Below, piece by piece: positions 3,044 through 17,778 of a stretch of 21,306 nt of DNA (within the stretch, counting starts at the first letter, position 1; the number at the start of each line of letters is the position of its first letter). This DNA comes from a virus. The stretch is from positions 1 through 21,306 of IMG/VR virus record IMGVR_UViG_3300045988_052980; one strand, 5' to 3'. The translations under genes were made by a program, and so were the position numbers. The notes beneath the pieces were generated by a model. The model had not been told where the DNA came from. It searched no databases and saw only the letters and a list, made by a program, of their open reading frames with translations.

Positions 3044-3579
3044 AAACGAAGTTAATCGGTAATTTCGTTAGAAAAGCTAGGAACGAAGATGGAAACCTAG
3101 AAATAACCTTTGAATTGACTGAACCAATATACGAAGCATACGCTCAGAACCTCGTAAAAGGGGAATATAGTGTAGTTATAGATTCAATAAGGTATTTACG
3201 TACAAATGAACAAAATCGCCTTATGTGGCATTTAATTAGTGAAATATGTAAGGACGATAATGCCGTTTCAAATGACACATGGGATATGTATTGCGAATTT
3301 CTGAAAATGTCAAAAGCATGGTATACATATGTTTCCGTTGTTAAAGAAGGTTATGACGAATTGTGTAGAGCGCATGGAGTTAGAGCAGTACAAGCATTAG
3401 GTACAGAAATAAGAAATAATGGAAAGGAATTTGTGAATTGTAGAGTATTTCTAGGTAGCTCACAAATGGACACAAAGCAAATGGGAGTATTAATTGATTG
3501 CATATTAGATTATGCAGAACAATTAGGAATCAGTACTCAATATTATTTAGATAAAGGAATAAAGGGGGAAGAAAAATAA
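3040..3579 (+). CDS. ninB: NinB/Orf-like recombination mediator
   Basis: RTNEQNRLMWHLISEICKD parallels lambda Orf RSLDQNRKLWACLGDVS. GSSQMDTKQMGVLIDCILDYAEQLGI parallels STSRMRVGEFAELLELIQAFGTEHGV. The TTG start overlaps the upstream TGA. Confidence 0.6.
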   Translation: MKTKLIGNFVRKARNEDGNLEITFELTEPIYEAYAQNLVKGEYSVVIDSIRYLRTNEQNRLMWHLISEICKDDNAVSNDTWDMYCEFLKMSKAWYTYVSVVKEGYDELCRAHGVRAVQALGTEIRNNGKEFVNCRVFLGSSQMDTKQMGVLIDCILDYAEQLGISTQYYLDKGIKGEEK

Positions 3580-3944
3580 AATTTGTAATTAAAGGAAAGC
3601 TTGATGGATTGAATGAATATATTAATGCTTGCAGAACGAATCGTTACAAAGGAGCAGAAATGAAGAAAAAGAATGAGCGTCTTGTAATGGCTTATATCTT
3701 ACAGGCAGTAAATTTTGGCGAGGTTTACGAAGTTAAGGACTACCCAATTAAATTAAATATTAATTGGTATGAGCCAAATAACAAAAGAGATATAGACAAT
3801 ATCACATTCGCTACTAAATTCATTCAAGATTCATTAGTTAGAACAGGAATTTTAGAGGATGATTCAAGAAAATACATTAATCAAGTGAATCATTCAGTAT
3901 TTACAGATAAGGAGAATCCAAGGATAGAGGTAGAGATTTTATGA
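3576..3944 (+). CDS. rusA: RusA-family Holliday junction resolvase, apparent ATA start
   Basis: NKRDIDNITFATKFIQDSLVRTGILEDDS and PRIEVEIL are RusA-like. The family-typical N-terminus KFVIKGKLDGLNEYINACRTNRYKGAEMKKK lies upstream of the track start (TTG 3609). The frame opens at 3555, and its only start-like codon is ATA 3576, 6 nt after GGGGGA (3564-3569). That ATA overlaps the upstream stop as ATAA. Confidence 0.75.
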   Translation: MKFVIKGKLDGLNEYINACRTNRYKGAEMKKKNERLVMAYILQAVNFGEVYEVKDYPIKLNINWYEPNNKRDIDNITFATKFIQDSLVRTGILEDDSRKYINQVNHSVFTDKENPRIEVEIL

Positions 3945-4292: not shown

Positions 4293-5024
4293 ATAGCAGA
4301 ACTAAAGAAAAGCCTACAAAGTGGGTATACACACGTTAATAATGAGATATTTCACGATAGAGAATTATCCTATAAAGCAAAAGGCTTGTTTTGCCAAATG
4401 TTAAGCCTTCCGGATAATTGGGATTTTAAGGAAAACAGTATTAAAGCACTAGCTACAGATGGAATATCAAGCGTTCGTTCCGGTTTAAAAGAACTAATGA
4501 ATAAAGGATATTTAATTCGTGAACCTATTAGAGAAGGTAATTTAATTGTTGATTGGCAATATACATTAATAGACAGTCCTCGGAATTTAGAAAATCTAAA
4601 AATAGAAAATCTAAAATTAGAAAATCTAAAATTAGAAAATCTAAACCCTATTAAATTAAATAATAATTCAACTAAAAATGAATTAAATAAAAATAATATT
4701 AATGTATGTACGCACAAACACAAATACGGAGAATATCAACACGTTCTATTAACAGATAAAGAACACACACACCTATTAGATTTATATGGAAACTCATTAT
4801 ATGAGCATATAAAGATTTTGGATGAGTACATTGAAACAAGTGGAAAGAAATACAAGAACCATTCACTAGTGATTCAAAAGTGGGTTCATGATGAATGGAT
4901 GAAAAGAAATAAAGATAATCCTATCACACTTGATTCAAAGTTTTATGTACAAGAAAGCAATCAATCGTATGCAGATGTACAGAAAGAAATGGAACGAGTT
5001 AGAAGGGAAATATTAAGAGCATAA
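4293..5024 (+). CDS. Replication initiator / replisome organizer (N-terminal wHTH, DnaD-like C-terminal part)
   Basis: GYTHVNNEIFHDRELSYKAKGLFCQMLSLPDNWDF...LKELMNKGYL is the typical phage replication-protein wHTH. It is followed by an iteron-encoding linker, then YGEYQHVLLTDKEH...KYKNHSLVIQKW. Start is ambiguous: ATA 4293 is 5 nt after GGTGGAGGTGA (4277-4287), whereas TTG 4275, GTG 4278 and GTG 4284 sit inside or before that SD. Confidence 0.7.
   Translation: MAELKKSLQSGYTHVNNEIFHDRELSYKAKGLFCQMLSLPDNWDFKENSIKALATDGISSVRSGLKELMNKGYLIREPIREGNLIVDWQYTLIDSPRNLENLKIENLKLENLKLENLNPIKLNNNSTKNELNKNNINVCTHKHKYGEYQHVLLTDKEHTHLLDLYGNSLYEHIKILDEYIETSGKKYKNHSLVIQKWVHDEWMKRNKDNPITLDSKFYVQESNQSYADVQKEMERVRREILRA
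4587..4646 (+). repeat. Four tandem 15-bp iterons (TTAGAAAATCTAAAA consensus), candidate phage origin
   Basis: Units at 4587-4601, 4602-4616, 4617-4631 and 4632-4646 each differ from the consensus by at most 1 nt. They encode (L/I)ENLK x4 in the linker of the initiator. An almost pure A+T tract follows at 4647-4710. Confidence 0.8.
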
Positions 5025-9967: not shown

Positions 9968-10156
9968 ATGAATTATGAAGAAAGGATTAAAGAGTTAATT
10001 TCTAAAAACAACAGATTAGGAAGGACGAATATTCAGTTAATTCAAAAGATTAAAGAAAAAGATGAAACAATACACAATCAAACTTTAGAATTGAGGCAAT
10101 TAAGAAATAAAGTTGGTGAATTAGAAGATAGATTGATGAGGATGTATGTATCATGA
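9968..10156 (+). CDS. Hypothetical coiled-coil protein
   Basis: ATG 9968 is 13 nt from GAGGGGG (9948-9954). An in-frame ATA at 9962 has the ideal 7-nt spacing. The track start at 9923 lies inside ssb. Confidence 0.5.
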   Translation: MNYEERIKELISKNNRLGRTNIQLIQKIKEKDETIHNQTLELRQLRNKVGELEDRLMRMYVS

Positions 10157-10479
10157 GCACATATGAAGATGTTAAAAGACACTTCTTGTGTGAATGTAAA
10201 AGCTACACTTATTATGAGCAGAGAATAGCAGAGCTACAAAGGGATGAAGCTATTTATCCTTTAAAAGCCGAGCTATTCTTAGCTCATGCAGATTACGCAA
10301 GAAGAATGAACTACGTAAAAGACAAATTAAGCCAACTTGATGATACAACTCGTACCATGATTGAGTATAGATATATAAAGGGATTCAGTGCAGAAAAAAC
10401 ATCTAATATTGTAGGTTATGCACGAGAAGAAATTCCACGAAAAATAAACAAGAATTTGAAGAAAGTGCTCACAATGTGA
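10153..10479 (+). CDS. Sigma-70 region-4-like / ArpU-type late transcription regulator candidate
   Basis: C-terminal TRTMIEYRYIKGFSAEKTSNIVGYAREEIPRKINKNLKK looks like a sigma r4 HTH. It is the last gene before the terminator and the packaging/structural genes. Confidence 0.55.
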   Translation: MSTYEDVKRHFLCECKSYTYYEQRIAELQRDEAIYPLKAELFLAHADYARRMNYVKDKLSQLDDTTRTMIEYRYIKGFSAEKTSNIVGYAREEIPRKINKNLKKVLTM

Positions 10480-10488
10480 GCATTTTTT
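10466..10488 (+). terminator. Rho-independent terminator ending the early/middle operon
   Basis: Stem TGCTCAC (10466-10472) / GTGAGCA (10476-10482), loop AAT, then TTTTTT (10483-10488). It overlaps the regulator's stop codon. Confidence 0.6.
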
Positions 10489-10505
10489 CATGTAATAATT
10501 ATTTT

Positions 10506-10581
10506 AGCAGGATAGAGCAGTAGTAGCTCACTAGTCTTATTAGCTAGAGGTCGAACGGTGCAAATCCTTCTCCTGCAACCA
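10506..10581 (+). tRNA. Atypical tRNA with anticodon UAU and an initiator-like acceptor and D arm, CCA encoded
   Basis: Hand fold: AGCAGGA-TA-GAGC-AGTAGTA-GCTC-A-CTAGT-CTTATTA-GCTAG-AGGTC-GAA(C)GG-TGCAAAT-CCTTC-TCCTGCA-A-CCA. Initiator-like: A1xA72 mismatch, G2:C71, C3:G70, A11:U24, A73. Deviations: U37, no GG in the D loop, G55 and a bulged C in the T stem. Confidence 0.6.
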
Positions 10582-11102: not shown

Positions 11103-11574
11103 ATGGAAATTATTAGATTGAAAATCAATAACATTACACCTTACGAAAAGAATGCAAAGATTCATACTGAAGCACAAATTGAACAAATTAAGAAATCTAT
11201 TCAAGAATTTGGTATGAATGACCCAATCGCAGTATTGGGGGGGGAACAATACCATAGTTGAAGGTCATGGTCGTTTAGAAGCCTTAAAGCAATTAGGCTA
11301 TACAGAAGTTGACTGTATCAGACTAGACCACCTAACAGATGAAGAAAGAAAAGCTTATACACTTGCTCACAACAAAATCAATATGAATACAGGATTCGAC
11401 TATATGTTATTAGATGAAGAATTAGACAGTATCGAAGATATTAATATGGGAGATTTTGGATTTGAAAGTATTGATGAAATTAATATGGATGAATATTTTG
11501 AAGATACCGAGCCAACAAAAAAAGAACCTAAAAAAATTCAGTGTCCACATTGTGGTGAATGGTTTGAACAATGA
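11103..11574 (+). CDS. ParB-like nuclease-domain protein (DpdB-like position), split by a +1 frame change in a G8 tract
   Basis: Frame A (ATG 11103) reads MEIIRLKINNITPYEKNAKIHTEAQIEQIKKSIQEFGMNDPIAVLGG and stops at 11259-11261. Frame B (track ORF 11218..11574) continues NNTIVEGHGRLEALKQLGYTEVDCIRLDHLTDEERKAYTLAHN. Together they form a complete ParB N-domain (DPI.V....IV.GHgRl.A). The junction is GGGGGGGG at 11237-11244. The stop overlaps the dpdA start (ATGA). Confidence 0.7.
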
Positions 11575-12329
11575 GAATGTTTCTAGCAGGAAGTATGGGG
11601 GGATTAACAAAATCGAAGTATAGTCAAGAAGAATTGTTTAAAGGTGCTTATATCTTACAATCGTTCTACTATGTGGACAAGTACGTTGAAAATGTAATAA
11701 TGCCAAACTGTAAAGATTTTATTTTAGATAGTGGGGCATTTACATTTATGCAAAATTCAAAAAAATCTGTAAATTGGGATGAATATGTTGAGAAATACGC
11801 AGAATTTGTAAAGAAACACAAAGTTAAGAAATACTTTGAATTAGATATTGATTCAATAGTTGGGTTAAAAGAAGTAGAACGATTAAGAGCAAAATTGGAA
11901 GCGTTGGTGGGGTGGCAATGTATTCCTGTATGGCACTTATGGAGAGGAATGGACTATTGGCATAAGATGTGCAAAGAATATTCATATGTAGCTATAGGTG
12001 GATTAGCAGATACAGATAAACATTCAAAGAGGATTAAAAAATTACATAATTGTTTCCCTATGTTAATTAATATAGCTCATAAAAATGGAGCAAAAGTTCA
12101 TGGGTTAGGTTACACATCATTAAAAGGAATAAAAAAATATCATTTTGATTCTGTTGATAGCACATCATGGTTAAGTGGAAATAGATTTGGAGCAGTTTAC
12201 AAATTTAATGGTGAAACGATAGTTAAGATAGATAAGCCAAAAAATAAAAGAGTAAAGACAAATATAGCAATGGAAAACAATTTTATGGAATGGAAAAAGT
12301 TCTCTCAATATGTAGAAAGGATGTATTAA
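11571..12329 (+). CDS. dpdA: DpdA-family 7-deazaguanine DNA transglycosylase (TGT-like)
   Basis: ILDSGAFTF corresponds to the TGT DSGGFQ block, and HGLG....HFDSVDSTSW to the second catalytic Asp block. Size (252 aa) and the adjacent queC fit phage DpdA. Confidence 0.8.
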   Translation: MRMFLAGSMGGLTKSKYSQEELFKGAYILQSFYYVDKYVENVIMPNCKDFILDSGAFTFMQNSKKSVNWDEYVEKYAEFVKKHKVKKYFELDIDSIVGLKEVERLRAKLEALVGWQCIPVWHLWRGMDYWHKMCKEYSYVAIGGLADTDKHSKRIKKLHNCFPMLINIAHKNGAKVHGLGYTSLKGIKKYHFDSVDSTSWLSGNRFGAVYKFNGETIVKIDKPKNKRVKTNIAMENNFMEWKKFSQYVERMY

Positions 12330-13162
12330 TGAATAAGGTAGTAAAATTAATATCCGGCGGTATTGATTCAACTATTATGGCTAATATGTACGAAGGATTA
12401 AATGTATATGTAGACTTTGGGCAAAATTATGTAAAAGAAGAATTGCAAGCTTTAAAAGAGTTAGGAATTAAATATGATTTAGTAAAGGTAAATAGCGTAT
12501 TTAAAGAAGATGATATATACATTAATGATAGAAACCTAGTATTAGCAAGTTTAGTTGCAATGATATATAATCCGGACATCATTATGATGGCAGGTACAAA
12601 GGATGACAATTGTGTAGATAAGACTAAAGAAGCATTTGAAAACATTAGCGATACTATTAGTCGATATTCAAATAAGGAAATAAAAGTTATATCACCTTTT
12701 TGGGATAAGACTAAAAGTGAAATTGTTGAACAATATGCAGATAAGGAAGAATTAAAAAAGACATTTTCATGCTATAACCCAATTAATGGGAAACCATGTA
12801 TGGATTGCCCTGCGTGTTTAAGAAAAACTATTGCACTAGTAACAAATGGAGTAGAAGTAAAAGAAAAGCTATCAAAAAGCATTTTAAAAAAATATCTTAA
12901 AAAGATACATACATATGATAAAGACAGAATTAGTAGATTCTTTTTCTACCTACAACAATATGAACAAATTAATGCAATTGATATTGACGGAGTATTATGT
13001 ATCTCAGAAGGACACGATTTTGAGAATAGTATTCCAATTTACGAGAATATAGAAAAAGTAAATAAATACGATGGAATTAATGTACTCTATACGTCAAGGT
13101 TAGAATCGGATAGAGAAGTGACTGAAAAATGGTTACAAAAGCACAACGTCAAATATGCTTAA
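12329..13162 (+). CDS. queC: QueC-like 7-cyano-7-deazaguanine (preQ0) synthase fused to a C-terminal HAD-phosphatase-like domain (HAD tail frame-disrupted)
   Basis: PP-loop SGGIDST, DFGQNY, NDRNLVLA, SPFWDKTKSEIV and Zn cluster SCYNPINGKPCMDCPACLRK are QueC-like. From about 12970: AIDIDGVL (HAD motif I) and NVLYTSR (motif II). Motifs III/IV (NKLPYTSLVDDRA) are encoded in the -1 frame at 13159-13221. The ATG at 12329 overlaps the dpdA stop. Confidence 0.75.
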   Translation: MNKVVKLISGGIDSTIMANMYEGLNVYVDFGQNYVKEELQALKELGIKYDLVKVNSVFKEDDIYINDRNLVLASLVAMIYNPDIIMMAGTKDDNCVDKTKEAFENISDTISRYSNKEIKVISPFWDKTKSEIVEQYADKEELKKTFSCYNPINGKPCMDCPACLRKTIALVTNGVEVKEKLSKSILKKYLKKIHTYDKDRISRFFFYLQQYEQINAIDIDGVLCISEGHDFENSIPIYENIEKVNKYDGINVLYTSRLESDREVTEKWLQKHNVKYA

Positions 13163-13231
13163 TAACAAATAAATTACCATATACAAGTTTAGTTGATGAC
13201 AGAGCAAAATTAACATTATAAAGGAGTAAAT

Positions 13232-13534
13232 ATGATTGAAAACAAAGAAAAAGTAAAATATATCGAAATGTATCCAAAGGCAAGATGTTTCTGCCCTATT
13301 GGTAAAGCATGGTACACCAATAAATTTAGAGTATCAGTATTTCCTAGAGATTGTTATTTCGACTATCTAGATGTAGAGAAATTTATTAAAGAAGAAATTG
13401 AAGGAAAAAGCTTAACAATTGAAGGAGCTTGCAAGAAACTATATAACTATTTGAAAAAAGATGTTGAAGATATTCAAGTAGAATCACACGTAAATGACGC
13501 AACGCATTTTCCTGTAAAGGTATTAATTGATTAA
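13232..13534 (+). CDS. Short QueF-like T-fold protein (nitrile reductase or QueF-L-type amidinotransferase)
   Basis: ARCFCPIGKAWYTNKFRVSVFPRDCYFDYLDVEKFI...TIEGACKKLYNYL aligns by eye with B. subtilis QueF [34 protein letters not shown]...FHEDCMNIIMNDL, with the Cys-Pro conserved. It is only 100 aa and lacks the N-terminal extension. Confidence 0.45.
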   Translation: MIENKEKVKYIEMYPKARCFCPIGKAWYTNKFRVSVFPRDCYFDYLDVEKFIKEEIEGKSLTIEGACKKLYNYLKKDVEDIQVESHVNDATHFPVKVLID

Positions 13535-13547
13535 GGAGGAAGTACTA

Positions 13548-14006
13548 ATAAAAAATCAAACAATTAAGACAATTTCAATGAATGCAATCGTATGTGCAAT
13601 GTATGTTGCATTATGTGTAGCATTAAATCCAATTAGCTTTGGAGCATTACAATTTAGAGTAGCAACTCTATTGTTACCGTTAGGGTTTCAAGATAAGAGA
13701 TTTGCAAATGGACTTATTTTAGGAGTAATCTTAGCAAACCTAACAAGTTCACTAGGATTAATTGATGTATTAGTTGGATTTACAATTCAATTTACAATGT
13801 ATTATTTATTCCCATATTATATTAAGAATAAATGGATTCATGGAATTGCTTATGCAGTATTAAGTGGAACATTAGTAGCATTAGAATTATTATCAGTATT
13901 ACACATTCCATTCTTATATTCATTTGTAACGGTTGGATTAAGCGGATTGATTTTATACGAAGTAGGAAATGTATTGTGTACAAGATTATTGAAATACATT
14001 GATTAA
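13548..14006 (+). CDS. queT: QueT-family membrane transporter (queuosine-precursor salvage), apparent ATA start
   Basis: NAIVCAMYVALCVALNPISFGALQFRVATLLLPL and ILANLTSSLGLIDVLVG match the QueT pattern, with about 5 TM segments. AAGGAGG (13533-13539) is followed after 8 nt by in-frame ATA 13548. The track TTG 13527 lies upstream of that SD. Confidence 0.7.
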   Translation: MKNQTIKTISMNAIVCAMYVALCVALNPISFGALQFRVATLLLPLGFQDKRFANGLILGVILANLTSSLGLIDVLVGFTIQFTMYYLFPYYIKNKWIHGIAYAVLSGTLVALELLSVLHIPFLYSFVTVGLSGLILYEVGNVLCTRLLKYID

Positions 14007-14408: not shown

Positions 14409-15739
14409 ATGAATAAGCCTGCACCTTTTAATCAAAAGCAGTTGGCTTACCTCAAGAAAACATTTGATTGTTGGTTGAATGTACTTGAGGGAGGTTAGGC
14501 AAGCGTGGAGGAAAGAACGTACTGAACACGTACGCATTCTGCGTTGCATTAGAAACACATCCGGATAAATTCCATTTGATAGCAGGAACGGATACATCAT
14601 CAGCACGTGTAAATATTGGAGATTGTAATGGATATGGTTTGCAGAACTATTTTGCTAATAGATTCAAAGTAGGAAAGTATGAAGGTAAAGACTGCTACTA
14701 CATCAACACAAAGGTTGGTGAAAAGGTTGTATTCTTTGCCGGTGGTGCTAAAAAAGGCTCAGAGAATGCGATACATGGTTATTCTTATGGAATGGCATAT
14801 GTAACAGAAGCAAACCTTTGTTGCATTGAGTTTCTACAAGAAGTGATGGATAGAACAATAGCTTCAAGCAATCGAAAGATATTTCATGATTTAAACCCCA
14901 AAGGAAAGAATCATTGGTATTATACTGATTTCTTGAAATATCATGAGGAGCAACAGAATAAAGATTCTACATATGGTTACAACTATGGGCATACCACCTT
15001 AGTTGATAATTATTCATTAAGTGATGAGCAGATAAGAACGGTCTTAAAATCATACGATAAGAATAGCGTTTATTACAAAAGAGATATAAAAGGACAAAGG
15101 GAAGAAGCCGAAGGACTTGTGTTCCCTTATTTTGCTAATGACTGCAAACCTTACCTATTTAAATATCAGAGTCTAAAAGAAAAGATGAAAGAACAAGGAA
15201 AAAGGTTCAGTCATTTAATCATAGGTGTTGACTTTGGAGACAATGGGTCAAAGTATTCATGGCATTTAACAGGGTTTACAAATGATTGGGATTATATGTG
15301 GGCACTTGATGAAGGAGACATGGCAAAATCTAATTCCATAGACGCAACAAAGTTCTGCAAAGCGTTTGTAAGGTTCTATAAGCGTTGTATTGAATGTTAC
15401 GGATATGTGGAATGGATATTTCCGGACAGTGCTTCTAATACATTAATTAACACGCTTAGAGCTTATTTCTACGCCGAAGGGCTAGACGGAAGTATAATTG
15501 CACCGGTCAAGAAGAATGAGCTAACCGACCGTCCCATAACGGTTGATAGCTTACTTGTTACAGGAAGATTGAAGATAGAAGAACATTGTAAGAACTTAAT
15601 AAACGCATTGAGCGAATTGGTATGGGATAAAAAAAAAGACATTCCAAAAGATGAGAACGTAAACAATATCAATGACGATTGGGATTCGTTCTGCTATACA
15701 TTTATAACCCATAGTGGATATATAGATTTAAGGAGGTAA
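14409..15739 (+). CDS. terL: Terminase large subunit, frame-disrupted at the Walker A region
   Basis: ATG 14409 (AAGGTGG SD) gives MNKPAPFNQKQLAYLKKTFDCWLNVLEGG, then TAG at 14496-14498. The rest (..GKRGGKNVLNTYAF...FHLIAGTD...VVFFAGGA...NPKGKNHWYY...IIGVDFGDNGS) is in another frame, open from 14489; the track ORF starts only at TTG 14576. Confidence 0.8.
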
Positions 15740-15742
15740 GAA

Positions 15743-17146
15743 ATAGAAACATCTAACACACGTAGACCGTGGTTTCAAAACTACCTTAACGAAAGAGGGT
15801 ATTTTGTAGATACAAACGCAATTGAAATCATTGAATTGTGTAACAAGTGGTATACGAATACAGAAACAGAATTTCATACGGCATACACATTAAATAACGA
15901 GGAATACACGCTAGACAAAACAGACTTTGCAAAGCGCTTGTGTGAGGATGACGCAAACCTAATTGAAATCTTAGATATAAACGCAACAGAGGACAGTGTT
16001 ACAAATGATATTATTTCAGACATTCTAACAAAGAACAGGTTTGATGTAATGTATAGGAAACAAGTTGAGCAAATGTCTGCAAACGGAACAGTAGGAGCTT
16101 ATGTAACTGTATCGAATGCCGAAATTTATGAAGATGGTTCATTTAGTGGAGGAGAAATCAGAATCAACTATTGTGATTCAATGAATATCCTCCCATTAAC
16201 TGTTATCAATGATGAAATTGTGGAAGTTGCTTTCGTTGGGGTAAATTACGAAAAACTAAAAAAAGTATATGTAATGGTCATGTTCTTAAAAGGACAAGAC
16301 GAAAGATATATTGCAGAAACACATTACTTTAAAGATACAGGCGAAGAAATAAAAGACCGTGCTCAGATTGTTCAATTAGATGTTGTAAAGCCGTTTGCAA
16401 TTATGAGAAACGCAAAGGTAAACAACTTACAAATGCAAGGTTACGGCTTGCCAAAAATTTGGAGCGCAATTGCTCCACTGAAAACAATTGATTTAACAAT
16501 GACAATGTGGAATCGTGATTTGTTGAAATCCGATAAAATCGTTCTTGTGAATGAAGCATTAATGCAGAAAGACGAGAATGGAAAGATTAAGATGAATCCA
16601 CAAATGAAAAAGATATTTGTTCAGTTAGGTAGAGATAAGCTTCCGGAAGAAAAAGCTTTATGGCAAGAATATAATCCAACAGTAAGAACGGCAGAAGTTG
16701 TTCAATCACTAGAAACTGCGTTAAGTATCTTATCTATGATGTTTGGATTTGGTACAAAGAAATATACGTTTGAAAGTGGAAGAATCGTAACGGCTACAGA
16801 ATATATCGGTGAGAATCAAGACGCAATGAAGGAAGTAAATTCACAACGTAAAGAATCTACTGCATATATTCAAGATATTATTCAAGCGATAGCGTACTTC
16901 TACGAATTAACACAAGGAAGAAAGCTTAATATCAATTCATTAGACATTGCAATTGATTATGACGATACGTATATCGAGGATAAGCAAAGCACGGCACAAG
17001 CGTTAAGGAATGACGCACTAACATTTGATATTCCAAGATTGAAAATCATGTACTTTATGAAGCAATACGGCTTTACTGAAGAAGAAGCTACTGAATTATT
17101 AAATGAAGAAATTCAAGATGATGGAGAGGAGGATGAAGAAGAATAG
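15743..17146 (+). CDS. Portal protein (SPP1 gp6-like), apparent ATA start
   Basis: About 467 aa directly after terL, with an acidic tail DDGEEDEEE. The frame opens at 15740. AGGAGG (15731-15736) is followed after 6 nt by ATA 15743. The first canonical start is TTG 15836, which has no SD. Confidence 0.75.
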   Translation: METSNTRRPWFQNYLNERGYFVDTNAIEIIELCNKWYTNTETEFHTAYTLNNEEYTLDKTDFAKRLCEDDANLIEILDINATEDSVTNDIISDILTKNRFDVMYRKQVEQMSANGTVGAYVTVSNAEIYEDGSFSGGEIRINYCDSMNILPLTVINDEIVEVAFVGVNYEKLKKVYVMVMFLKGQDERYIAETHYFKDTGEEIKDRAQIVQLDVVKPFAIMRNAKVNNLQMQGYGLPKIWSAIAPLKTIDLTMTMWNRDLLKSDKIVLVNEALMQKDENGKIKMNPQMKKIFVQLGRDKLPEEKALWQEYNPTVRTAEVVQSLETALSILSMMFGFGTKKYTFESGRIVTATEYIGENQDAMKEVNSQRKESTAYIQDIIQAIAYFYELTQGRKLNINSLDIAIDYDDTYIEDKQSTAQALRNDALTFDIPRLKIMYFMKQYGFTEEEATELLNEEIQDDGEEDEEE

Positions 17147-17778
17147 CAACTACATATTTTCCATTCGTCTCAAGAAATGGCGATAGATTAGTGTTATATG
17201 ACGCTTTCAGAAGATTATTCTCAAGCTATTTCACAAATGGTGTGTTCATAGACGATTCTAGTTCAGACCATTTAAGAGTTGAGAAAGCTCAAGGCTTAAC
17301 ATTAACAATTAAAGCAGGACGAGCAAATATTAATGGAGCGTTCTATTGGCAGAAAGATGACGAAACCATAACATTAGAAAAGAATAGCGCTACTAAAAAC
17401 TACAATATTATTCTTAGGTTAAATGATAATGACACATATAGAAACATTACCTTAGTAGCAAGTGATATTAACAGTGGAATTACAAGAAGTGATTCTATTT
17501 ACGATTTGGTATTAGCTACAGTTACGGTAACAGGTAATTCAAATGAAGTTAAAGGTTCAGATATTACAGATACAAGATTAGATTCAACACGTTGTGGAGC
17601 AGTTACAAGCGCAATTAAAAGCGTACAATCGTTGGATTTATTTACCCAAGTTACTGAGTTATTCAAAGAAATTAAGGCTCAGAATGAATCTGAAATGAAC
17701 GCAAATAGAACAGAGTTCAATGATTGGTTTGAAACTGTAAAAGATACGTTAGACGCAAATACGGCAGGGAAACATTGA
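17143..17778 (+). CDS. Fibre/baseplate-type structural protein (YFPF..GDR family), apparent ATA start, C-terminus frame-disrupted
   Basis: (M)ATTYFPFVSRNGDRLVLYDAFRRLFSSYFTNGVF...LTLTIKAGRANINGAFY matches the widespread Firmicute prophage structural family that begins M..YFPFdS..GDR.Y. The frame opens at 17137, and its only start-like codon is ATA 17143, overlapping the portal stop as ATAG. The track GTG 17191 would remove the conserved N-terminus. Confidence 0.6.
   Translation: MATTYFPFVSRNGDRLVLYDAFRRLFSSYFTNGVFIDDSSSDHLRVEKAQGLTLTIKAGRANINGAFYWQKDDETITLEKNSATKNYNIILRLNDNDTYRNITLVASDINSGITRSDSIYDLVLATVTVTGNSNEVKGSDITDTRLDSTRCGAVTSAIKSVQSLDLFTQVTELFKEIKAQNESEMNANRTEFNDWFETVKDTLDANTAGKH

Follow-up and report, generated by a model that had tools for sequence, protein, structure and literature searches.

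The 21,306-nucleotide stretch analysed here (the window; positions 1 to 21,306 of the IMG/VR virus record IMGVR_UViG_3300045988_052980) is a siphovirus-like genome segment of 32% GC with every gene on the plus strand, and it raises a question about how its genes are started. Midway along it lies a transfer RNA (tRNA) gene that combines the body of a bacterial initiator with the anticodon UAU, the complement of AUA, and several genes of the same segment appear to begin at ATA. Does the phage supply an initiator of its own that pairs with AUA start codons, as a first-pass annotation of the sequence had proposed as a working hypothesis? On the comparative evidence set out below this is the best-supported reading, and we consider it probable that the tRNA is a functional phage initiator, derived from a bacterial-type initiator by the changes CAU to UAU and A37 to U, which serves (A)AUA starts. 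The gene and its anticodon loop are located as follows:

10506-10581, plus strand: initiator-type tRNA with anticodon UAU (RF00005 match, direct reading, conservation and covariation, class models)
10536-10542, plus strand: anticodon loop C32-U33-U34-A35-U36-U37-A38 (direct reading, RF00005)

Read directly, the tRNA is made up of AGCAGGA, UA, GAGC, AGUAGUA, GCUC, A, CUAGU, CUUAUUA, GCUAG, AGGUC, GAA(C)GG, UGCAAAU, CCUUC, UCCUGCA, A and CCA. The acceptor stem contains A1xA72, G2:C71, C3:G70, A4:U69 (where initiator tRNA has G4:C69), G5:C68, G6:C67 and A7:U66; the D stem, GAGC/GCUC, includes A11:U24 and closes a loop (AGUAGUA, 10519-10525) that has no GG; and the anticodon stem, CUAGU/GCUAG, has G30:C40 as its sole G:C pair at 29-31:39-41. 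The UAU triplet occupies 10538-10540, and U37 at 10541 is the complement of the A that precedes the ATA starts. These are followed by the AGGUC variable loop, a T arm GAA(C)GG-UGCAAAU-CCUUC with a bulged C and its loop at 10559-10565, the discriminator A73 and an encoded CCA. The minimum-free-energy fold is the cloverleaf, and Rfam family RF00005 matches the window over the full length of the model at 10506-10578 (plus strand; 48.8 bits, E = 7e-8) with 1x72 as the only non-standard pair flagged. The cloverleaf folded by hand in the first-pass annotation was right in every feature listed, and the check by tRNA models that it recommended came out well above the RF00005 gathering score of 29 bits, ARAGORN alone finding nothing: that program calls no tRNA in the window. 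It does call the close relative L089 (L numbers designate the loci compared), which has a normal elbow, as tRNA-Ile(tat), and it is probably the unusual elbow of the window tRNA that makes it miss the latter. The tRNA gene itself is confirmed as real.

The gene was found in 31 of the 31 related loci that extend far enough, and it is kept in about 75 related human-gut contigs assembled by independent projects. Its alleles differ in the bulged T-stem nucleotide, which is the only T-stem position that varies, in one T-loop base and, in one allele, in three anticodon-stem pairs at which both sides have changed (C-G to U-A, U-A to C-G and A-U to G-C), converting CUAGU/GCUAG to UCGGU/GCCGA. The latter stem, with two G:C pairs and U31-G39, is nearer to the classical initiator stem UCGGG/CCCGA. 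More distant members of the class were collected by scanning viral, genome and metagenome collections with a pattern that fixed the GAGC/GCUC D stem, a CUUAUNA loop and AGGUC and nothing else; A11:U24 is part of this pattern and is therefore informative for the window sequence alone, whereas the acceptor features (1x72, G2:C71, C3:G70 and A73) lie outside it. The scans gave 26 distinct well-formed cloverleaves of about 16 types. In an alignment of 24 class members 95.4% of the cells are paired and compensatory change is seen in 15 of the 21 pairs, a level of covariation that was reached by none of 500 shuffles. Position 1:72 is unpaired in 18 of the 24, while each of the remaining 20 pairs is paired in at least 96% of the sequences; G2:C71 and C3:G70 do not vary, and all members but one have A73 (23/24). 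The strength of the RF00005 match, the retention of the gene throughout the related loci, the triple compensatory allele and the class-wide covariation together indicate that the tRNA is under selection.

Among the alternatives raised at the outset was a decaying tRNA, to which one may add a remnant of an integration site. Either would account for the failure of ARAGORN to detect the gene and for the bulged T stem, G55, the missing D-loop GG and U37. Decay is rejected by the conservation of the gene in some 75 contigs from independent assemblies with compensatory changes; moreover, no T-stem position other than the bulge varies, in three lineages G55 goes together with the altered D loop, and the gene sits mid-genome, far from the integrase. 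We regard this explanation as extremely improbable. With regard to the elbow, G55 occurs, among 235 distinct tRNAs, only where the D-loop GG has become AG (UAG), in three independent phage tRNA lineages represented by the window tRNA, L336:2353-2424 and L130:791-863. This suggests a compensated elbow pair, A18/G55 in place of G18/psi55, rather than decay. The close relatives L089 and L099, which share the acceptor stem, the anticodon loop and the 3' flank of the window tRNA, are fully canonical in D loop and T arm.

To which class, then, does this tRNA belong? As comparators from viral contigs we used 103 elongator-type tRNA-Ile(UAU) and 106 initiator-type tRNA(CAU) sequences. The D stem reads GCUC/GAGC in the elongator-type set and GAGC/GCUC in the initiator-type set. 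Position 1:72 is paired in 98/103 of the former and mismatched in 81/106 of the latter (AxA in 13/106); G2:C71 is present in 45/103 as against 98/106, C3:G70 in 13/103 as against 92/106, and all three anticodon-stem G:C pairs in 0/103 as against 26/106. A position-specific log-odds profile built on 43 positions, none of which is fixed by either search pattern, separates the two sets in leave-one-out scoring (elongators, mean -42 bits and maximum -2.5; initiators, mean +32), with one of the 209 sequences misplaced. On this profile the window tRNA comes out at +28 bits, on the initiator side, and all members of its own class lie between +12 and +46 bits. Custom covariance models, each made from 70 sequences of one comparator set, likewise score it at 63.0 bits as an initiator and 51.3 bits as an elongator tRNA-Ile, the initiator model winning even though the UAU anticodon favours the elongator model; the tRNAs of L089 and L104 also score higher with the initiator model. 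The nearest GenBank phage tRNAs are all annotated as tRNA-Met.

The determinants of the formyltransferase are chiefly the 1x72 mismatch and, to a minor extent, A73, G2:C71, C3:G70 and a purine 11:pyrimidine 24 pair (R11:Y24) (PMC9976931). The window tRNA has the mismatch, G2:C71, C3:G70, A73 and A11:U24; it lacks the three G:C pairs at 29-31:39-41 and the CAU anticodon of an initiator. Measured as an elongator tRNA-Ile(UAU) it has the anticodon, and it lacks a paired 1:72, Y11:R24, a purine at 37 and similarity to the elongator profile. By these comparisons it belongs with the phage initiator-type tRNAs, from which it stands apart at C34U and A37U. The initiator-like features singled out in the first-pass annotation, including AGGUC, are all present, and the models return neither an ordinary elongator tRNA-Ile nor a pseudogene. 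The features it listed as not initiator-like are there as well, but they carry less weight than it gave them: barely a quarter of the phage initiator-type set has the three G:C pairs, G55 appears compensated, and L089 and L099 are canonical at the elbow.

Initiator-type tRNAs with GAU or AAU anticodons were absent from the viral contigs scanned, while those with UAU occur in about 45 contigs, which points to a change of anticodon specific to UAU. There are also initiator-like tRNA(UAU) types that keep A37, namely those of L115/L121 (a 95.8 kb contig of 34% GC), L116 and L102/L124; the L121 and L116 versions keep the three G:C pairs and C1xA72 too, and are essentially tRNA-fMet with C34U. A further set, on IMG/VR contigs of 45-61% GC (L366/L369, L367 and L370), has initiator-like tRNAs with a CAC anticodon, the complement of GUG starts, together with the GAGC/GCUC D stem, a 1x72 mismatch, AGGUC and, in two of the three types, U37. 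Normal annotation would make these tRNA-Val. The CAC types suggest that phages retune initiator anticodons more widely.

On the side of the start codons, five genes of the window have a strong Shine-Dalgarno site, properly spaced, in front of an ATA codon and no usable canonical start:

3576-3944, plus strand: RusA-like resolvase; ATA at 3576-3578, Shine-Dalgarno AAAGGGGGA, A at -1
4293-5024, plus strand: replication-initiation/DnaD-like protein (PHROG replication initiation protein); ATA at 4293-4295, Shine-Dalgarno GGAGGTGA, spacing 5, A at -1
13548-14006, plus strand: QueT-like membrane protein; ATA at 13548-13550, Shine-Dalgarno AAGGAGG, spacing 8
15743-17146, plus strand: portal protein (PHROG portal family); ATA at 15743-15745, Shine-Dalgarno AAGGAGGT, spacing 5
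17143-17778, plus strand: head protein (PHROG head protein family from residue 3); ATA at 17143-17145, Shine-Dalgarno GAGGAGG

The ATA of the RusA gene aligns with the annotated Met1 of the RusA of Lactobacillus phage LL-Ku (MKFVIEGRLDGLN versus IKFVIKGKLDGLN) and is conserved in the relatives. The portal frame is open for no more than one codon ahead of its ATA, back to the terminase stop codon, and the portal N-terminus is co-linear with that of the ATG-started portal of MT837573.1. Both the portal and the head protein genes have ATA in 37 of 37 related loci, and the QueT-like gene has ATA or ATG at this exact codon in the relatives (its Pfam QueT match rests on a truncated gene call). In five gene families ATA and ATG alternate at one codon behind the same Shine-Dalgarno site. 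The ATA-start genes of the first-pass annotation, the portal and RusA among them, are borne out by these sites, alignments and polymorphisms. Across 188 start families from 85 loci, ATG is used in 130, ATA in 33, GTG in 10 and TTG in 8, with ATA/ATG mixed in 5 and ATG/GTG mixed in 2; ATA therefore ranks second among the starts of this phage group (33-38 of the 188 families). Public gene calls of the ATA-start genes begin instead at a downstream TTG or GTG (15836 and 17191 in the window; likewise in loci L038-L047), giving a portal of 436 amino acids from TTG where the ATA gives 467, 31 residues short, and a RusA of 94-111 where the ATA gives 122. The database proteins of these genes are N-terminally truncated.

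Two other accounts of the start-less open reading frames were considered and set aside. Reassignment of a stop codon (code 4 or 15) does not fit, since all three stops end genes and the frames open at ATA behind Shine-Dalgarno sites. A sequencing or modification artefact connected with the 7-deazaguanine genes of the phage is countered by the independent assemblers and projects involved, by the ATG found at most starts, and by the relatives without 7-deazaguanine modification genes that still have ATA starts. As a separate observation, the codon after the ATA (e.g., at 15746, 17146 and 4296) begins with G in about half of the cases and is often GCN (Ala), as against about a quarter for ATG, and a second-codon preference in the ATA mode of initiation is possible.

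The tRNA and the ATA starts are found together beyond the window and its close relatives. A divergent lineage, L067/L104 (31-34% GC), has a C1xA72 tRNA(UAU) with an anticodon loop identical to that of the window tRNA. It lies between the sigma-like and small terminase genes, the same genomic position and the same order of regulator, tRNA and packaging genes as in the window. Within 10 kb of this lineage there are six ATA-start genes, all behind strong Shine-Dalgarno sites, which code for the sigma-like regulator (in L104 a phrog_1740 match), the small terminase (IAKGKYKEW...), portal, major head, small head-region and minor head proteins; residue 2 of the L104 major head protein aligns with position 2 of the PHROG profile. 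For a quantitative comparison we counted open reading frame families in which a Shine-Dalgarno match of at least 6 nucleotides precedes the codon tested while the best canonical start has at most 4; this Shine-Dalgarno-advantage test replaced two earlier schemes for scoring ATA against decoys or controls, one too lax and one too strict, which were uninformative. In the tRNA-bearing group ATA gives 22 families, while the 13 decoy codons give 0-6. Low-GC phages with an elongator tRNA-Ile(UAU) or an initiator tRNA(CAU) yield 8 and 2 ATA families, respectively, within the decoy range, and the nearest GenBank portal relative carries no tRNA and has ATG starts only.

These data bear on the view that the two are unrelated, the ATA starts being a habit of the host or of phages at large, such as weak regulatory starts (cf. 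the AUU of infC), and the tRNA a relic or a molecule with some other role. Regulatory roles are indeed possible for non-canonical starts. However, the tRNA and the ATA starts occur together in all informative relatives as well as in the second lineage, neither the control phages nor the tRNA-less GenBank relative has an ATA excess, very low-GC bacteria have been reported with ATG as almost their sole start, and the anticodon together with position 37 is the exact complement of A-AUA. We hold this view to be very unlikely.

The complementarity just mentioned extends to a fourth base. Of the 38 ATA families 34 have A at -1, as against 69 of 128 ATG families (Fisher p = 4.5e-5), and the four ATA families without it look like false calls. 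U37 is found in exactly the two lineages with ATA starts. In E. coli, position 37 of tRNAfMet pairs with the mRNA base at -1, and complementarity there raises initiation, including the combination of A at -1 with A37U (PMC10018350). The start signal hence appears to be A-AUA, read by U34-A35-U36-U37, and the host initiator would mismatch it at two positions. Since the preference for A at -1 is confined to ATA starts, and this A can pair with U37, the start sites seem to have been co-adapted with the tRNA rather than to have drifted passively.

This last point also bears on the possibility that the tRNA is an initiator kept for replacement or escape, in which a host nuclease or toxin directed at tRNA-fMet would be evaded through C34U and A37U, AUG would still be read through U-G wobble, and the ATA starts would be a later product of drift, having become tolerable. 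PMC10264068 describes phage tRNAs whose altered anticodon loops let them escape tRNA-targeting defences, initiator-type tRNA(CAU) is common in phages, the ATA/ATG polymorphism at the same codon suggests that the two are nearly interchangeable, and a genome of such A+T richness favours G-to-A drift. The -1 preference argues for co-adaptation instead, ATA is fixed in the portal and head genes of all 37 related loci compared, and no defence system or nuclease was identified in this analysis; the escape scenario is in our judgement unlikely.

A further possibility, already named in the first-pass annotation, is that the tRNA is an elongator tRNA-Ile(UAU) on an initiator scaffold that decodes internal AUA, while the host fMet-tRNA serves the ATA starts inefficiently. 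The anticodon fits this, AUA makes up 24% of the Ile codons of the phage, elongator-type tRNA-Ile(UAU) is common in phages (>120 contigs), ARAGORN labels the relatives tRNA-Ile, and a normal fMet-tRNA can start at AUA at a reduced level. Yet the profile and covariance scores favour the initiator class, and diverged members retain the 1x72 mismatch and A11:U24 while their other pairs are maintained; an initiator gains the ability to work as an elongator when positions 1 and 72 are made to pair, according to Seong and RajBhandary 1987 as cited in PMC9976931. Furthermore, U37 replaces the A37 usual for elongators reading ANN codons, phages with a true elongator tRNA-Ile(UAU) have no excess of ATA starts, and ATA begins the genes for the major capsid protein and the portal, which have to be highly expressed. 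We consider this elongator reading quite unlikely.

Several observations nevertheless weigh against an AUA-reading initiator and have to be set beside the evidence for it. Internal AUA is frequent in the phage (17 per 1000 codons), and an elongator role for the tRNA would be useful too. The ordinary initiator uses AUA at about 7.5-15% of the level of AUG in vivo, and equally to AUG in one in-vitro system (PMC5499595), so that the ATA starts do not strictly depend on a special tRNA. The window allele has one G:C pair at 29-31:39-41 (the other allele noted above has two) along with its bulged T stem and G55, and its behaviour in the P site and with IF3 could be abnormal on that account. The two ATA-using lineages have distantly homologous portals and an identical anticodon arm, and may not be fully independent. 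Finally, A37-type initiator-like tRNA(UAU) genes (e.g., L121, L122, L085 and L102) occur without clear ATA starts: nothing convincing was seen near those of L048, L085, L086, L088, L091, L102, L121 and L122 in the fragments available.

How might such an initiator work? Its expression can be considered from the features directly upstream:

10153-10479, plus strand: sigma-factor-like/ArpU-like regulator, immediately 5' of the tRNA (transcriptional regulator and sigma factor families of PHROG, matched weakly)
10466-10488, plus strand: hairpin TGCTCAC-AAT-GTGAGCA followed by T6 (direct reading; the palindrome is also listed on the minus strand)
10491-10499, plus strand: TGTAATAAT, candidate extended -10 element (direct reading; ends 7 nucleotides before tRNA position 1)

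The hairpin, a short way 5' of the tRNA, overlaps the sigma-like gene's stop codon, and with its T6 it looks like a terminator. TGTAATAAT is possibly the tRNA's own extended -10 element; it was not reported by the promoter consensus scan, which also needs a -35 hexamer, and in L067 a TATAAT stands about 21 nucleotides upstream of the tRNA. The tRNA would then be transcribed either from this -10-like element or as part of early-operon transcripts that read through the hairpin. It would be charged most likely with isoleucine by isoleucyl-tRNA synthetase (IleRS), and less likely with methionine, because anticodon reading is a feature of the class I synthetases that serve this codon box: the methionyl enzyme (MetRS) depends on C34 (PMC9976931), and the IleRS of some bacteria accepts UAU according to references in the same article. 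The formyltransferase, whose action is largely independent of the amino acid (PMC9976931), would recognise the unpaired 1x72, G2:C71, C3:G70, A73 and A11:U24; the tRNA would be excluded from EF-Tu, and IF2 would deliver it to the P site of the 30S subunit. There U34-A35-U36 would pair perfectly with the AUA start and U37 would add a fourth pair with the preceding A. The matched ATA start sites lend the proposed formylation, IF2 binding and P-site entry indirect support. In this way AUA, a poor start for the host initiator, could become an efficient one for about 20% of the phage gene families, among them genes for replication, the portal, the head and, in relatives, the major capsid. A dedicated tRNA for capsid-level expression is plausible, even though it is not logically required. 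Engineered initiator tRNAs with altered anticodons start at the complementary codons, which speaks for feasibility (bioRxiv 10.1101/2021.05.25.445580).

Taken further, this mechanism would amount to a private, partly orthogonal initiation channel of a temperate gut phage lineage, in which A-AUA is read by the phage tRNA, translation of the replication, packaging and capsid genes is gated by expression of this tRNA, their proteins probably begin with formyl-isoleucine, and initiators are retuned in this manner generally; we give this broader picture about an even chance of being right. The full-text literature searched deals with engineered initiators of altered anticodon and with AUA as a weak start, and describes no natural AUA-reading initiator tRNA; a virus-driven expansion of the start codons, if this is one, would be a new consequence not found described there.

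The remaining genes of the window follow an ordered arrangement. It begins with a Sak-like annealing protein, the RusA-like resolvase, the replication initiator, a DNA methylase, a dUTPase and the single-stranded DNA-binding protein SSB; 3' of the tRNA come a DUF6275 gene, the ParB-like, DpdA-like, QueC-like and QueT-like genes, the small and large terminases, and the portal, head and scaffold genes. The ParB-like nuclease, DpdA-like transglycosylase, QueC-like and QueT-like genes (11218-14006) make up a 7-deazaguanine DNA-modification cassette that only some relatives possess. No GenBank phage is similar to the window at the DNA level, and the best portal match is 44% identical. For the host, a portal search in species genomes gave no match, the tRNA pattern occurs in the genome collections only in high-GC metagenome-assembled genomes and one Roseobacter, which yields no host candidate, and the E. 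coli genomes contain no similar tRNA.

A separate peculiarity concerns the large terminase gene (14409-15739), which starts at the ATG at 14409 and is interrupted near 14478-14495. Most relatives have TTA GAA GGT GGC AAG CGT (LEGGKR) in one frame at this junction. The window has GGT[TA]GGC, producing a TAG stop and a change of frame, and L023 has GGT[TAA]GGT; in both, the order is Gly codon, stop and, 5-6 nucleotides on, a second Gly codon that matches the first, and the sequence upstream has turned into the Shine-Dalgarno-like GAGGGAGGT. The relatives concerned are L023, L118 and L040 and also L025, L046 and L110. The junction is a candidate for a short translational hop or other programmed recoding; otherwise these would be defective copies. 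A CTG at 14522, considered as an alternative start of the gene, was rejected, as it is CTC in the relatives.

If confirmed, the tRNA would represent a natural expansion of the start codons by a virus-encoded initiator, an initiation-stage counterpart of the stop-codon recoding effected by phage suppressor tRNAs, and a natural precedent for the engineered orthogonal initiators of synthetic biology. It would offer a testable model for the translational gating of lytic genes and, in the preference at -1, evidence from natural covariation that tRNA position 37 forms a fourth pair with the mRNA during initiation. In practical terms, gene callers mis-start about one-fifth of the genes in these phages, tRNA finders miss the tRNA or label it Ile, and phage proteins may begin with a residue other than methionine.

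Among known systems the closest in structure is bacterial tRNA-fMet, with which the window tRNA shares the unpaired 1x72, G2:C71, C3:G70, A73, A11:U24 within GAGC/GCUC, AGGUC, the GCAACCA 3' end and the anticodon loop pattern CU-NAU-NA. It differs in having UAU rather than CAU, U37 rather than A37 and AxA rather than CxA, as well as one to two of the three anticodon-stem G:C pairs and, in the window allele, the bulged T stem and the G55/A18-type elbow. The best GenBank phage match, at 79%, is the tRNA-Met of Mycobacterium phage Phabba (NC_054714.1, 91296-91370), which likewise has a mismatch at 1x72 (A1xC72), A11:U24, a CUAGC/GCUAG anticodon stem and AGGUC. Phage initiator-type tRNA-Met(CAU) genes in general resemble the window tRNA in that the three G:C pairs are often missing and 1x72 is often AxA; unlike it, they keep CAU and A37 and have no known link to unusual starts. 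The elongator tRNA-Ile(UAU) of Mycoplasma mobile, lactic acid bacteria and phages shares the AUA-reading anticodon but differs in its Y11:R24 GCUC/GAGC stem, its usually purine position 37, its mostly paired 1:72 (98/103) and the rarity of C3:G70 (13/103), the two classes being about 70 bits apart by profile log-odds.

Engineered initiators (the amber type; i-tRNA(AAC), bioRxiv 10.1101/2021.05.25.445580) are alike in that a changed anticodon redirects initiation, the new anticodon setting the amino acid. In contrast to these laboratory constructs, the window tRNA is natural, carried by a virus and matched by dozens of recoded start sites in its own genome. Mitochondria use AUA as a start by means of a single tRNA-Met with a modified C34 (or with UAU in ascidians) under a changed code, whereas in these phages internal AUA is frequent and bears no apparent sign of reassignment. 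The suppressor tRNAs of crAss-like and Lak phages, by which a virus-encoded tRNA changes the meaning of a codon, reassign stop codons in elongation; here it would be a sense codon that gains a start function, there being no reassignment of internal AUA, which stays an isoleucine codon.

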